Assembly: GCA_951406725.2 (NCBI GenBank) | Contig: OX597821.1 | Location: 24,118,001-24,182,000, forward strand | Source: Octopus vulgaris | Lineage: Eukaryota | Direction: 5' to 3' | Length of the DNA stretch: 64,000 bases | Shown: piece by piece, positions 15,912 to 56,246 of the stretch | How positions within the stretch are numbered: the first letter of the stretch is position 1 | How the letters are laid out: every line of letters begins with the position of its first letter | Notes under the pieces: generated by a model | The model's database searches: none | What the model was told of the DNA's origin: nothing | Seen by the model: only the letters and a program-made list of their open reading frames with translations | Translations under genes and position numbers: made by a program

Positions 15912-15962
15912 AGCTTCTACAGGACTAGTACTGTTTCATTCAAGAGAAATCTTCAGGAAGCT
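15912..15962 (-). ncRNA. Minimal type-I hammerhead ribozyme (CUGAAGA core)
   Basis: Exact reverse complement of 18030-18080. Confidence 0.7.
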
Positions 15963-18029
15963 ATTTAACAAGAATTGTATTAGCATTTATACATTTAGGC
16001 AGGTTTAAAGGAGTGGTGGTGGGGGACTTTTTTGGGGGTAGGCATAGCGCAAAATATCATACTTGGGGGAGTGGTCAAGGAGTCAGTGGTAAGTTAGATG
16101 AAAGAATAGATAAATAAAAAAATAAAATAATAAAATAAAAAAATAAAAAAATAAAATAAAAAAATAAAAAAAAATAAAATAAAAATTAAAAAATAAAAAA
16201 ATATAAAAATAAAAAATAAAATAATAATAAAAAAAAAAATAAAAAATAAAAAAAAAATAAAAAATATAAAAAAATAAGAAATATATATAAAAAATATATA
16301 CATATACAAATATACGCACATATACATATACAAATATACATATACAAATATACGCACACACATACATACATACACGTATACACATACACGCACATACACA
16401 TATACATGCGTACCCATACACGTGCACACACGCACGTGCATCCATATATATACACACACACACATATATATACACGTGTGCAAGCATACATACATACTCA
16501 TACACGCACACATACTTACATATACATATATGCACACACTTACACACATATATACATACACATATACATGCATACATACATATATGCATACATACACATA
16601 CACGCACATACACATATACATGCGTACCCATACACGTGCACACACGCACGCGCATCCATATATATATATATATAGGTATGTATCTGTATGTAGGAGTATA
16701 TGTGTGTGTGTGTATGTATATGTGTATATATATATATATATGTATATTTATTGGTGTATATGTATAGACTAGCCTCCTAAAGTGTAGACACGAATCTGTA
16801 GGTACGAGTACGTATGTGTATATACGTGAACGTATGTAGATGTTTGTATGTATGAATATAACGCGTGCGTACGTGTATGTGTATGAGTGTACGAATGGGT
16901 GAATGTACGTGCTAATGAGTGTGCGTGCGGGAATGAGTACTTGCCTTCTAGTAGACAGACAAATGGACATGCTGCCATAGCCAGGATCCTTAGCTCTAGC
17001 GATCAAAGATAACAAAAGTAATAAATGAAGATAATAATAAAATTAAAATTAGGGAATGGGCCTGTATTGGATTGTATATATATATATATATATATATATA
17101 TATATATATGTATGTATGTGTGTATGTGTAGGTATGTATAGGTACACATGTGTATGTGTATGTGTATGTATGTGTGTATATGTATGTATGTGCACACATG
17201 TATATATATGTATGCGTGTATATGTATATATATATATATATATATATATATATGTACATATGTGTATGTGGGTGTATGTATATATAGGTGTAAATATGTG
17301 TATATAGGGAACTAGGTGTGTTGTGTGTGCATGAGTGTATGTGCGTATGAATATATATTTTTCTGTGTATATATGTATGTGTGATCGTGGGTATATATAT
17401 ACATGTGTGTATGCGTGCATGCATGGGAGTGAGTGTATGTATATATACGTGTGTGTATGTGTAGACAGGTATATGCATGTGCATGTGTATAAATTTGTAT
17501 ATGTGGGCGGGTGTATGTATGTGTGTATGTAGATATGTATGTATATGTGTATATATGTATATGTATATATATATATATATATATGTATATATATATATGT
17601 GTATATATATGTGTGTAGATACGTATACATATGTGTATAGGTATAAGTGAGAATCTCCTTATTTACCTATAACTCTATCCCCCCTTTTTTTTTTTTTATA
17701 TATATATTTTTTTTATATATATATTTTTTATATATATTTCTTATTTTTATATTTTTTTATTTTTTTTATTTTTATTTTTTTATTTTTTTATTATTTTATT
17801 TTTTTATTTTTTAATTTTTTTATTTTTTATTTTTTATTTTTTTATATTTTTTTATTTTTTATTTTTTTATTTTTTTATTTATCTATTCTTTCATCTAACT
17901 TACCACTGACTCCTTGACCACTCCCCCAAGTATGATATTTTGCGCTATGCCTACCCCCAAAAAAGTCCCCCACCACCACTCCTTTAAACCTGCCTAAATG
18001 TATAAATGCTAATACAATTCTTGTTAAAT

Positions 18030-18080
18030 AGCTTCCTGAAGATTTCTCTTGAATGAAACAGTACTAGTCCTGTAGAAGCT
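18030..18080 (+). ncRNA. Minimal type-I hammerhead ribozyme (CUGAAGA core)
   Basis: agcttc-CTGAAGA-tttc tctt gaat-GAAA-cag tactagtc ctg-TA-gaagct. 6-bp stem I, 3-bp stem II with a U.U first pair, stem III cag/ctg, GUA cleavage triplet. Confidence 0.7.
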
Positions 18081-18647
18081 CCTTCTATATAATAAAAAAT
18101 ATATATATATATATATATATATATATATATATATATATATATATTATGTGTATGTGTGTGTAAGGATAGCTCAATAATAAACAAAGCACATAGAATAAAA
18201 CAAAAAGACAAATTAATACTGCAATAGTAAATCAGGGGAGAAAATCTCATTAAGATAAGAAACGCTGGGAGAGTTCAATAGATATATTAGGTCCATAAGG
18301 TGCACATGAATTCTATTTGTAGTGGTTAAGTGTGTATCAGCGTATGTTAAGGTGAACAAATGGGGTAGGCATGTGGATGCCTTTGAAGTAAACAAATAAA
18401 TGACATCGATTCATAGTTAAAATAATTTATTTGCTGTACTTGCACTTGCCTTTGGTATACAATATTCTTCACTACATGTAATTGTTGACAACTGCTACGA
18501 GTTGCTAGTAATAGAAACAGGGCACATCTGTGGAGGTGATATGTCAGAACTGAAAATGTTTGTGTGTGTGTGCGCGCGTCGTTCATCTGAGAAAGTAGTC
18601 TGCCATGAACCTTTCAACCTGCCTGCCAAAGCTTTTCTTGTCTGCGT

Positions 18648-18880
18648 CCGAGCTGGCAGAATCGTTAGCACGCTGAGCGAAATGCCTGGCAGTATTTCGT
18701 CTGCCGCTGCGTTCTGAGTTCAAATTCCGCCGAGGTCGACTTTACCTTTCATCCTTTCGAGGTCGATAAATTAAGTACCAGTTACGCACGGGGGTCGATG
18801 TAATCGACTTGATACCTATGTCTGTCCTTGTTTGTCCCCTCTATGTTTAGCCCCTTGTGGTTAATAAAGAAATAGGTATT
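18648..18880 (+). mobile_element. SINE with central cctttcatcctttcgaggtcgataaattaagtacc domain (Meta-domain-like)
   Basis: tRNA-like head (gagctggcagaatcgttagc..gagttcaaattcc). Same family as 49165-49390. Domain name assigned from memory. Confidence 0.75.
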
Positions 18881-53521: not shown

Positions 53522-53905
53522 TGGCACTCCGTCGCTTACGACGACGAGGGTTCCAGTTGATCCGGTCAACGGAACAACCTGCTCATGAAATTAACGTGCA
53601 AGTGGTTGAGTACTCCACAGACACGTGTACCCTTAACGTAGTTCTCGGGGATATTCAGCGTGACATAGTGTGACAAGGCCAACCCTTTGAATTACAGGCA
53701 CAACAGAAACAAGAAGTAAGAGTGAGAGAAAGCTGTACAGCAGGTACAGGGTACAGCAGGGTTCGACACCATCCCCTGCCGGAGCGTCGTGGAGTTTGAG
53801 GTGTTTTCGCTCAATAAACACTCACAATGCCCAGTCTGGGAATCGAAACCATGGTCCTATGACCGTGAGTCCGCTGCCCTAACCACTGGGCCATTGCGCC
53901 TCCAC
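53522..53905 (-). mobile_element. tRNA-derived SINE (40496 family)
   Basis: High similarity to 40500-40881. Confidence 0.9.
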
Positions 53906-54129
53906 GCTAGATAGATAGATAGATAGATAGATATGTTTCTTTATTAGCCACACAGGGCTGCACACAGATAGAACAAATTACAAGGTAGAGCTTTTCTTTT
54001 GAAGGTTTAAAAAAAAAAAAAAATAAATAAATTAAAAAAAAAAAATAAAATAAAAAATAAAATAAAATAAAAAAGGGGGGTCGATCAAAAGGGATCGTAA
54101 AAGGAGAGAAAGAGGACAAAAAAGGGGGG

Positions 54130-56045
54130 TTATAGATAGATAGATAGATAGATAGATAGATGGATAGATAGATAGATAGATAGATAGATAGATAGATAGA
54201 TAGATAGATAGATAGATAGATAGATAGATAGATAGATAGATTGAATCACACAGAGAAAGACTAACGGACAGACAAATATACAGACAGAAAGACAGACAAA
54301 TAGATAGACAAACAGAGAAAGAGAAAAAGCGAGAGAGAAAGAGAAAGAGAGAAAGAGAGAGAGAGTGAGAGAGGGAGAGAGAGAGAGAGAGAGAGAGAGA
54401 GAGAGAGAGAGAGAGAGAGAGAGCTGACTGATTGATTGATTGATTGGTTGATTAATTGAAAAGTAGATAGATACATGATCACTCATAAACTGAAATCGGT
54501 GAAAGCGGTTGTTGCCTTCCCGCCAAAGCTTTGGCCTTGTATCCGTGTTAGAAATTACTTTACTACAAACGCACTCAAACTGTGTCAGTGACCAGATCAC
54601 TGATGTAATATTTTGACATTTTATTGTGATATAATAATTTTGTAATATAATAATATCTGGAAATGAAAACCGAATGTATCTGTTTATGCCTGTGTGATTT
54701 AAACAGCTCTCATCACTCCACAACGATGTGGTTGTTTATGTGTGTGTATGTGTGTGTGCATAAGTATGCAAGTATGTATATATGTGAGTATACATATGCA
54801 CACACGCGCGCACACAGACATACAAACGCACACTCACTCACACACATACATACACACACACACATACGCATACACACACGCATACGCACATAAATATAAA
54901 CACATCATATATGCATTGGTGGAGCTCAGCAAGGTTGACTATTCATGGCTGGCAAACGTTCCCAGCAAGTTGTATGTATGTATGTATGTATGTAAGTATG
55001 TATGTATGTATGTATGTGTGTGTATGTATGTTTGTATGTATGTATGTATGTATGTGTGTGTATGTATGCATACATGCATGTATGTATGTATGTATGTATG
55101 TATGCATGTATGTATGTATGTATGTTTGTATGTATGTTTGTATGTATGCATGTGTGTGTGTATATGTATGTACGTATGTATGTATGTATGTATGTTTGTG
55201 TGTATGTATGTATGTATGTACGTTTGTATGTATGTATGTGTGTATGTATGTATGTATGTTTGTATGTATGTGTGTGTGTATGTATGTATGTATGTATGTA
55301 TGTATGTATGCATGTTTGTATGTATGTATGTATGTATGCATGTTTGTATGTATGTATGTATGTATGCATGTTTATATGTATGTATGTATGTATGAATGTA
55401 TGTATGTATATACGTATGCATGTATGCATGCATGTACAAGGAAAAAAGAATCGCGTCAGTTTTAACATATCGATTTACAAGTATTATCTTCAAAACTAAC
55501 ATATATCATTCCCAAATATTCCCTAACCACATAGTTCCGGCTTTAGTGCCACTACGTGGAACCTAGAGAATGTATCTTCTACTATAGCCTCACGCCGACC
55601 AAAGTCTGAAAGAAGCCCGTCGTTTATCTATCTATCTATCTATCTATCTATCTATCTATCTATCTATCTATCTATCTATCTATCTATCTATCTATCTATC
55701 TATCTATGTACCTATCTGTTTGTCTGTCTGTCTATCTATCTATCTATCTATCTATCTATCTATCTATCTATCTATCTATCTATCTATCTATCTATCTATC
55801 TGTCTGTCTATCTATCTATCTATGTACCTATCTGTTTGTCTGTCTGTCTATCTATCTATCTATCTATCTATCTATCTATCTATCTATCTATCTATCTATC
55901 TATCTATGTATCTGTCTGTCTGTCTATCTGTCTATCTATCTATCTATCTATCTATCTATCTATCTATCTATCTATCTATCTATCTATCTATCTATCTGTC
56001 TCTGTCTCTCTCTCTCTCTCTCTCTATCTATCTATCTATCTATGT
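54130..56045. repeat. Microsatellite cluster (GATA, GA, TATG, TATC)
   Basis: Directly visible; source of the many spurious low-complexity ORFs. Confidence 0.95.
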
Positions 56046-56189
56046 GTATGTATGCATGCATACACCCCCCCACACATATATATATATATTGATAGAAATG
56101 GCAAGACAACATAAGAATGAAAGAGACCTCAATATTATGTAAATAGAGGAATTTATCTGTAAATATAATAATAATAATTCGGTAGCCAT

Positions 56190-56246
56190 GATAAAACTCC
56201 GAGTTTCGGATGTCTGGGCGGAAACCCACGCATCTCTTCAGTTATC
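56190..56246 (-). ncRNA. Minimal hammerhead ribozyme (CUGAAGA core) in a roughly 170-bp (TA)n-flanked insert (56090-56262)
   Basis: Minus strand: gataa-CTGAAGA-gatg cg tggg tttccg ccca ga catc c-GAAA-ctc g gag-TT-ttatc. Confidence 0.7.

Follow-up and report, generated by a model that had tools for sequence, protein, structure and literature searches.

Nine hammerhead-shaped motifs are present in the window, the 64-kb stretch of Octopus vulgaris DNA (contig OX597821.1) that was analysed, each of them 0-6 nt from the start, and with the core, that a sequence-only reading had assigned to it. Inspection of the window sequence finds the type I minimal layout N3 Y4 G5 A6 N7 N8 A9 ... G12 A13 A14 A15.1 / U16.1 H17 in all nine, and by fold and core they are minimal type-I hammerheads, whose cleavage is predicted. 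The invariance of G5, A6 and A9, to which that reading had drawn attention, holds in the motifs but is not evidence, because the motifs are recognised by these residues. Seven repeat families, A to G, account for the nine motifs, two pairs being inverted copies of one insertion each.

The family A insertion (15826-18098) consists of two 5'-truncated 3' regions of a Penelope-like element (PLE) placed head to head and flanked by (TA)n tracts at 15771-15825 and 18099-18144. Its left copy bears a tail of about 70 nt. The hammerhead at 15912-15962 (minus strand) has the core CUGAAGA, a U10.1-U11.1 mismatch, a 16-nt near-palindromic stem III and a predicted cut after A17; stem II is 3 bp plus U-U. 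The first base of the inverted copy, at 18030-18080 (plus strand), is the inferred transcription start, and an inferred TATA box, TATAAA, occupies 18001-18006 (plus strand), at -29 from it. Hammerhead B (26786-26827, plus strand) has the core UUGAUAA, a bulged U beside pair 10.1-11.1 and the stem III palindrome ACUAGU, and its element ends at 26942, within (TA)n. The family C insertion lies between (TA)n tracts at about 30340-30914; its hammerhead (30410-30533, plus strand) has the core CCGACGA in this copy, a stem II of about 97 nt and the palindrome ACAGCUGU.

Family D, also between (TA)n tracts, extends over 31083-33897 and comprises a 5'-truncated minus-strand PLE and an inverted copy of its pseudo-LTR (pLTR). 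Its hammerheads are at 31133-31175 (minus strand; core UUGAUAA, stem III palindrome ACAUGU, a weak stem I of only 3-4 pairs, all A-U) and 33776-33817 (plus strand). The short family E insertion (36723-37040, between (TA)n tracts) combines a minus-strand copy that carries the ribozyme with a rearranged plus-strand copy that lacks the ribozyme and has the tail. Hammerhead E (36791-36840, minus strand) has the core GUGAACA with a G3-C8 pair, an extra G between 9 and 10.1, the palindrome AAUAUU and a 7-bp stem I. A 5'-truncated 3' region of family G (37090-38029, minus strand) ends in (TA)n at 37089 and contains hammerhead G (37509-37635, minus strand; core CCGAAGA, that is U4C, a 100-nt stem II and the palindrome ACAGCUGU). 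The family F insertion, between TA runs at about 56085-56262, carries hammerhead F (56190-56246, minus strand), with the core CUGAAGA, a bulged C beside pair 10.1-11.1 and the near-palindrome ACUCGGAGU.

A descriptor that leaves positions 3, 4, 7 and 8 free and requires a palindromic stem III and non-G17 finds the same three-stem layout in seven of the nine window motifs. It misses 30410 because of a mismatch in stem I and 33776 because stem I is too short; earlier, stricter descriptors recovered five of the nine. In all seven matches in the 64 kb, positions 3 and 8 form a Watson-Crick pair and position 4 is a pyrimidine. Thirty local dinucleotide shuffles of the window, a control that the sequence-only reading had proposed, gave a mean of 0.03 and a maximum of 1 match of this hammerhead class versus the seven real ones. 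In a genome sample of 60 stretches of 10 kb, 13 matches were found, or 1 per 46 kb, versus none in six shuffles of that sample. The window is about five times richer in hammerheads than the genome, and one motif per 7 kb, the density noted earlier for this stretch, is not supported as a genome figure.

The stems of some motifs are short and A-U rich, and the short motifs have ordinary folding z-scores, as would be expected of chance matches in AT-rich, repeat-rich DNA. The shuffle counts refute this reading, and conservation at the family level and siting within PLE ends also speak against it, so that it can practically be dismissed. In an Rfam scan (E<=5), none of the 150 matches listed, out of 192, is a hammerhead, most of those listed being microsatellite-driven miRNA matches; a PDB search gave no match.

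The pairing of Penelope-like elements with hammerheads is already known. The nine motifs lie in the terminal repeats of seven families; six of these (A, B, D, E, F and G) are linked to the gene of a PLE, and the seventh, family C, is likely a PLE as well. A reverse transcriptase (RT) followed by a GIY-YIG endonuclease (EN) in a single ORF is supported by the A frames, the E pieces and a Pfam match in D. The RT+EN frames of family A, 718 and 722 codons long, look intact and have YRDD and YIG motifs; the E frames are pieces of 487-524 codons with YVDD and YIG. The D frame in the window (32372-33442, minus strand) is broken, with an RT thumb, a CX4CxxC linker and a GIY-YIG endonuclease, and a sister copy (L020) matches GIY-YIG PF01541 at E 8e-7. 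PLE frames are found upstream of four B copies (L073, L076, L079 and L421) and beside two F copies (L215, L217), and RT and EN frames upstream of G in three copies (L257-L259). Family C has one weak match to a PLE frame and no firmly tied frame; its assignment is likely because of its 69-70% DNA likeness to G. Atlas neighbours carry RVT_1, GIY-YIG and HTH_animal; Pfam gave no RT match in these frames and NCBIfam only weak ones. D and E have a CX3-4CxxC linker, a Zn-finger-like type tied to the Neptune clade in passages of PMC8557442, and A, F and G form a separate group.

Family samples consisted of the top 30-40 of 96-1943 candidates each. The pLTR layout is seen in them as a ribozyme upstream of the ORF (L247 and L248, both family A copies with the RT+EN frame, and L215) or downstream of it (L246, L247), and inverted 5'-truncated partners and two 3' ends, with an optional tail, occur among the sampled copies. 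Most A, D and E copies sampled terminate at fixed sites in (TA)n. The distance from the first (TA)4+ run to the cut has two preferred values (21/92 nt in A, 51/88 in D, 55/147 in E), and in F it is 109 nt. The earlier proposal of several PLE families with minimal type-I hammerheads and (TA)n insertion is supported.

Family A copies were 100% identical over 206 nt in 40 of 40 scored genome matches. The family is very young and, with its intact-looking ORFs, is a ready test system. Many 225-codon frames had raised the idea of an 'endonuclease-only' derivative of A, which was rejected: there is a frameshift at a C run, and the RT frame lies directly upstream. The frameshift itself is either an assembly error or real.

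The family cores are CUGAAGA (A, F), CUGACGA (C), UUGAUAA (B, D), CCGAAGA (G) and GUGAACA (E). In the young families they are fixed or nearly so among aligned copies (35/35 in A, 33/33 in D, 30/30 in E, 29/30 in G). CCGACGA, listed as a core by the sequence-only reading, is indeed present at 30410, but it is a minority variant of family C (3 of 33 aligned copies, the window copy among them, with CUGACGA in 20). The claim that positions 3 and 8 remain complementary holds at the family level: the pair is Watson-Crick in all seven family majorities, and there are whole families fixed for C-G, for U-A and for G-C. Of 14 matches in the genome sample to a descriptor with 3 and 8 free, 13 are complementary. 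The switches that are independent number only about two or three, B being related to D and C to G. Since the 3-8 pair is kept, the variant cores probably represent tolerated forms of one and the same active site. Canonical cores make up 7 of 13 genome-sample matches and three of the seven window families, so the earlier statement that a CUGANGA-only search would mostly miss these ribozymes was overstated. By rough extrapolation the genome holds about 60,000 hammerhead motifs, about half of them with non-canonical cores.

Much of this variation has precedents. In the main text and supplement passages of Cervera & de la Pena 2014 (PMC4209133), Penelope hammerheads have type-I topology and a tiny or palindromic stem III, lie in pLTRs as single and inverted copies, include U3-A8 cores (UUGAUAA is listed for Schistosoma mansoni) and may have the extra base between 9 and 10.1 that is seen in family E; the mollusc examples there have canonical cores. 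The same passages do not contain G3-C8 (E) or U4C (G) fixed in whole families, a stem II of about 100 nt (C, G), palindromes of 8-16 nt or a bulge on the 3' side of stem II (B, F). Natural U3-A8, the U10.1-U11.1 mismatch and, in viroids, U4C are described in passages of Perreault et al. 2011 (PMC3088659), from which G3-C8 is absent; such variants are rare there, whereas here whole families, with thousands of copies, have them as the rule. No report of a natural G3-C8 core was found in the literature searched, which consisted of partial texts, and such a core fixed in one young family (E) looks new; on hammerhead ribozymes in octopus the search likewise yielded nothing relevant. It would widen the known covariation of the hammerhead active site and belongs in search descriptors. 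A 2017 paper by Lunse, Weinberg and Breaker, to go by its title, reportedly deals with numerous small hammerhead variants associated with PLEs, which cleave as dimers; G3-C8 or U4C may already figure among them.

The 5' ends of genomic copies bear on how the ribozymes are used. None of 30 full-length A copies, chosen by the sequence downstream of the tail, and none of 30 E copies starts at the predicted cut, so that 5' ends at the cut, sought as a fossil of cleavage, were not found in the A and E samples. Instead, 5' ends cluster at an A that lies 6 nt (A) or 22 nt (E) ahead of the core, with TATA at -29 (A) and -30 (E) from this inferred +1. Four of the 30 A ends fall at -42 to -45, which are the opening bases of stem I (crude p 0.003); of the others, 24 lie further upstream, the longest about 775 nt from the cut, and two downstream of it. 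Six of the 30 E copies are long and reach into an autonomous PLE, and none of the 24 short ones extends beyond 23 nt before the core; an E query that began past the cut retrieved the same 40 places. Short A copies were not returned by an 87-nt query, itself uninformative. Of eight E copies ending at the inferred +1, six have a G in place of the T of the long parent (p about 0.001-0.004), two of these G-bearing junctions being inversion junctions. Family F lacks a TATA at -30, and its ends cluster only loosely, with 12 of 30 falling at 12-28 nt, toward which the query was biased; the samples of B, C, D and G, also biased, show no 5'-end wall. The clustered A is likely a capped transcription start. 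That sampled A and E copies never start at the cut, and that the RNA probably starts just ahead of the motif, is apparently new. The isolated junctions that L112 and L257 have near the cut are anecdotal.

These ends can be read in another way, as a 3' splice site: an intron of the terminal repeat would end just before the ribozyme, and short copies would come from spliced RNA. In A, E and F this A(G) also qualifies as a good 3' splice site, with a branch-like CTAA/TTAA, pyrimidines and AG directly ahead of the ribozyme, which counts against a start site there; passages of PMC4209133 describe a D. virilis Penelope intron ending at helix I, and a 5'-UTR intron is described in PMC2377424. However, the bases upstream of the G-AG vary from copy to copy, hence there is no shared first exon, three candidate donor junctions occur in none of the fetched loci, and the TATA spacing suits a start at that A. 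We consider splicing unlikely. A trans-spliced leader was rejected, as the copies have no upstream sequence in common.

On balance it is somewhat probable that the minimal hammerheads in PLE terminal repeats are slow self-cutting RNAs, dependent on a partner copy or the element's protein, and that uncut, capped RNA starting just ahead of them is what is copied. The weak stem I of D, the short stem II of A, the weak dimer duplex predicted for E and the 26 of 30 A ends that lie away from the cluster speak against it. A TATA/initiator promoter would launch transcription 6 nt (A) or 22 nt (E) ahead of the core. The reverse transcriptase would initiate internally, downstream of the ribozyme, and continue across the ribozyme as far as the cap, with one G added; in E this may yield the abundant ribozyme-headed pieces of about 205 nt. 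Cleavage would remove a capped leader of 45 nt (A) or 58 nt (E), in A 138 nt ahead of the start codon. Since the cut would separate the capped leader from the message, cleavage may act as a brake or in end-trimming rather than make the insertion template. A tentative extension is a self-decapping switch, in which the transcript opens with its own hammerhead, the uncut capped RNA is translated and copied, with cap-derived G's and swarms of ribozyme-headed pieces of about 205 nt left behind, and a cut triggered by a dimer or protein disarms the message, one young family doing so with a natural G3-C8 core. If this were true, the state of the ribozyme in vivo would be written into the genome; its role in Penelope-like elements is called unclear in passages of PMC8557442.

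A circle model has been proposed in passages of PMC4209133. Two ribozymes of a tandem transcript would pair through stem III and excise a unit RNA, which would be closed into a circle by ligation; reverse transcription beyond the joint would then leave repeats at both ends. Stem III is palindromic in all seven families, although palindromy was required by the descriptor and so is no independent test. The predicted dimer duplex is worth -15.2 (A), -11.1 (C/G) and -9.7 (F) kcal/mol but only -0.2 kcal/mol in E, and the 24 of 30 full-length A copies that extend upstream of the inferred start fit the model, but read-through tandem RNA accounts for them equally. A circle has no end and therefore leaves unexplained the E wall with its extra G, at or inside which 24 of 24 short copies stop, and the cluster in A. 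This model is rather improbable.

It has also to be asked whether the fold is kept for protein binding or RNA dimerisation, some variant-core families (E, G, D) no longer cutting meaningfully. No sampled copy starts at the cut, G3-C8 and U4C reduce activity in vitro (passages of PMC11167929 and PMC3088659), and PLE ribozymes are slow (PMC4209133, in part). Nevertheless, the 3-8 pair, pyrimidine 4 and non-G17 (the last required by the descriptor) are kept across many unrelated families, which fits active-site selection. A non-cutting fold is distinctly unlikely.

The proposed copying of uncut capped RNA has a close parallel in the Anolis Poseidon element PAc. According to passages of Frangieh et al. 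2024 (PMC11167929), RT initiates internally, the ribozyme is protein-assisted, uncut RNA is the dominant template and no reads occur at the cut; as here, two 3' ends delimit a tail and targets are AT-rich. The PAc ORF starts inside the ribozyme, whereas the family A ORF begins 138 nt after the cut. G3-C8 was engineered in PAc, C3G/G8C being partly active, whereas here it is natural. The evidence here consists of genomic 5' ends, which support in vivo what had been found in vitro, namely that the template is uncut RNA; by these ends, transcription likely starts at the 5' edge of the ribozyme.

The short E pieces resemble non-LTR retrozymes, as described in parts of PMC7229834 and bioRxiv 10.64898/2026.07.22.740005, in being short, non-coding, ribozyme-bearing, PLE-related and of similar size. 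Retrozymes, however, are tandem arrays with canonical active ribozymes, whereas the sampled E copies are dispersed singles or inverted pairs, tandem short ribozyme units being absent, and unlike retrozymes they match the end of an autonomous PLE identically. The idea that E is an independent SINE or retrozyme was rejected, 6 of 30 copies leading into that element. Contigs of four probable RNA runs, likely from related organisms, are without a splice joint and carry no information on ends, strand or level; in them the short E piece is covered far more than its parent.

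The nine hammerhead motifs proposed for the window are all present, with the cores that had been assigned to them. A descriptor that leaves positions 3, 4, 7 and 8 free and calls for a palindromic or near-palindromic stem III recovers seven of the nine, all with a Watson-Crick pair at 3-8 (the tertiary pair of the core) and a pyrimidine at position 4; 30 local dinucleotide shuffles of the window average 0.03 motifs of that class. The genome (2.8 Gb, 227 contigs) was sampled as 60 stretches of 10 kb at round-number positions on 31 contigs. This sample gave 14 matches, 13 of them in the class just defined; six shuffles of the sample gave none. 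The class is real and common, because matches in both the window and the genome sample far exceed those in the shuffles. The sampled density of one per 46 kb extrapolates to roughly 60,000 motifs, a minimum, given that two of the nine window motifs escape the descriptor. One motif per 7 kb is right for the window but not for the genome, compared with which the window is about fivefold enriched. The 13 sample cores are CUGANGA (7), CCGANGA (3), GUGAACA (2) and UUGACAA (1), so that a canonical search finds about half, rather than mostly missing the motifs as the sequence-only reading had supposed. Its invariant G5, A6 and A9 are present, but do not count as evidence because the search itself imposes these bases.

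Genome searches, in which the best 40 of 869-1943 candidates per family were scored and 30 fetched, sort the window motifs into seven repeat families, A to G. In the core tallies, which include window copies where fetched, CUGAAGA occurs in 35/35 copies of A and 32/37 of F, UUGAUAA in 28/40 of B and 33/33 of D, GUGAACA in 30/30 of E and CCGAAGA in 29/30 of G. U3-A8, G3-C8 and U4C are thus true family states, but CCGACGA is a copy-level variant here, because family C has CUGACGA in 20 of 33 copies and CCGACGA in only three. Non-complementary 3-8 cores are confined to scattered single copies (10 of 313 matches in the fetched loci). B and D are distantly related, as are C and G, and therefore few independent switches underlie the 3-8 covariation.

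The motif class itself is already known. Passages of Cervera and de la Pena 2014 (PMC4209133) describe minimal hammerheads of Penelope-like elements (PLEs), molluscs among their hosts. The features given are a palindromic stem III, U3-A8 cores (UUGAUAA is one) and an additional base at 9/10.1; these ribozymes also occur as inverted pairs, and their activity as dimers is low. Parts of Perreault 2011 (PMC3088659) report U3-A8 and U10.1-U11.1 in natural ribozymes, and U4C in a viroid. An engineered C3G/G8C ribozyme is partially active according to sections of Frangieh 2024 (PMC11167929). No report of a natural G3-C8 core was found, and such a family may be new; the most relevant survey, Lunse 2017, and some supplements and figures lay outside the search and may hold one. 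At least ten further hammerhead types were seen (loci L361, L369, L379, L396, L405, L407, L411, L412, L043, L107 and L321), many with a stem II of 50-60 nt and 8-bp palindromes, and several with U4C or U10.1-U11.1. The very long stem II forms, about 100 nt in C and G, may also be new.

Several PLE families are indeed the hosts, as had been suggested. Family A leads to frames of 680-722 codons with RT (YRDD) and GIY-YIG motifs; the ribozyme lies 138 nt upstream of the start codon in locus L248, about 3.3 kb downstream of the stop in L246, and on both sides of the frame in L247. Frames of the RT/GIY-YIG type are also reached from G, E, F, B and D, that of D within the window. A Pfam search of the PLE frames detected GIY-YIG for D only and gave no RT match; the atlas neighbours of A and E bear RVT_1, GIY-YIG and HTH_animal. 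Family C would be tied to PLEs solely through its likeness to G.

Copies vary in 5' truncation and frequently have inverted partners. Their 3' ends run into (TA)n, at two preferred positions 21 and 92 nt from the predicted cleavage site (the cut, after H17) in A (26/30), at 50-53 or 84-92 nt in D (30/30), mostly at 55 or 147 nt in E, and at about 109 nt in F. The paired ends in A, D and E are the PLE tail signature reported in portions of PMC8557442 and PMC11167929.

Were the template a product of cleavage, copies would be expected to begin at the cut. Of 30 full-length family A copies, taken from 96 candidates by the sequence downstream of the tail, none does: four begin on the first bases of stem I (-42 to -45), two downstream of the cut (+8, +25) and 24 further upstream. 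Circular RNA templates would account for the long upstream ends, but not for the wall of 5' ends found in E. There, six of 30 sampled copies continue into the autonomous element. The other 24 are short, and not one of them starts at the cut or extends more than 23 nt ahead of the core. The first E query took in 8 nt ahead of the cut; a repeat with a query from behind the cut returned the same 40 places. In eight E copies the 5' end is an A that lies 22 nt ahead of the core; six of these (five of seven sampled copies, and the second E copy of the window) carry a preceding G where the parent element has T. Two A copies likewise show an extra G. In work on LINEs, such a G is a residue of reverse transcription of the cap. 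Relative to the putative RNA start, both families have a TATA box, at -29 (A) and -30 (E). Family F has a loose 5'-end cluster near a similar AG, where no TATA box was found; the B, C, D and G samples are query-biased or show no wall. The sequence at this AG in A, E and F also matches a 3' splice site, for which passages on D. virilis Penelope (PMC4209133) offer a precedent, but neither a common first exon nor a spliced junction was found in the loci examined.

Most likely, the ribozyme's 5' edge is the start of the A and E RNA, which is copied uncut and capped. Transcription would begin at that edge and reverse transcription downstream of the ribozyme, yielding either full-length copies or short ribozyme-headed pieces from the first repeat; four or five short E pieces occur at three loci in the 600-kb genome sample. 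Parts of Frangieh 2024 (PMC11167929) show that the RT initiates internally, that protein assists the ribozyme and that the main template is uncut RNA. Cleavage would remove a capped leader of 45-58 nt, probably through stem III dimers or with protein help; the predicted dimer has -15.2 kcal/mol in A, but only -0.2 kcal/mol in E. Alternatively, the hammerhead fold may have been kept and cleavage lost. The genomic evidence on the RNA start position and on the copying of uncut RNA may be new.

Many A copies (L252-L255, L124, L139) have the same frameshift, in a C run that separates RT from endonuclease; it is either a real hotspot or an assembly error. Loci L121-L122 (contig G000:C2, 60390500-60406700) form a 15-kb nest of tandem and inverted A copies with six ribozymes. 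Different families accumulate in the same microsatellites, as at L097/L323, where a short E copy sits inside the (TA)n run immediately after a family A tail, and at window positions 36723-38029. A rearranged E copy (36846-37040, forward strand) has a few bases in place of the ribozyme between both stem I strands. Directly upstream of the G piece, 17 copies of a 71-bp unit (98% identity) occupy 38030-39239; the unit may be an amplified part of the G 3' region, because its start recurs at a G junction in L182. Tandem units of 78/85 bp lie within the D 3' region (31563-32042), and related sequence upstream of the B ribozyme (~26640-26770) makes the window B copy chimeric. A broken PLE RT fragment between (TA)n tracts (23330-24860, reverse strand; 44-46% to the G protein) has neither the endonuclease end nor a ribozyme.

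The window has a GC content of 36% and is rich in (TA)n and other microsatellites. A tandem C2H2 zinc-finger frame of 586 codons (4255-6015, reverse strand) is likely a host gene exon, and two broken reverse transcriptase fragments, at 9097-9582 and 49967-51187, are presumably of LINE type.
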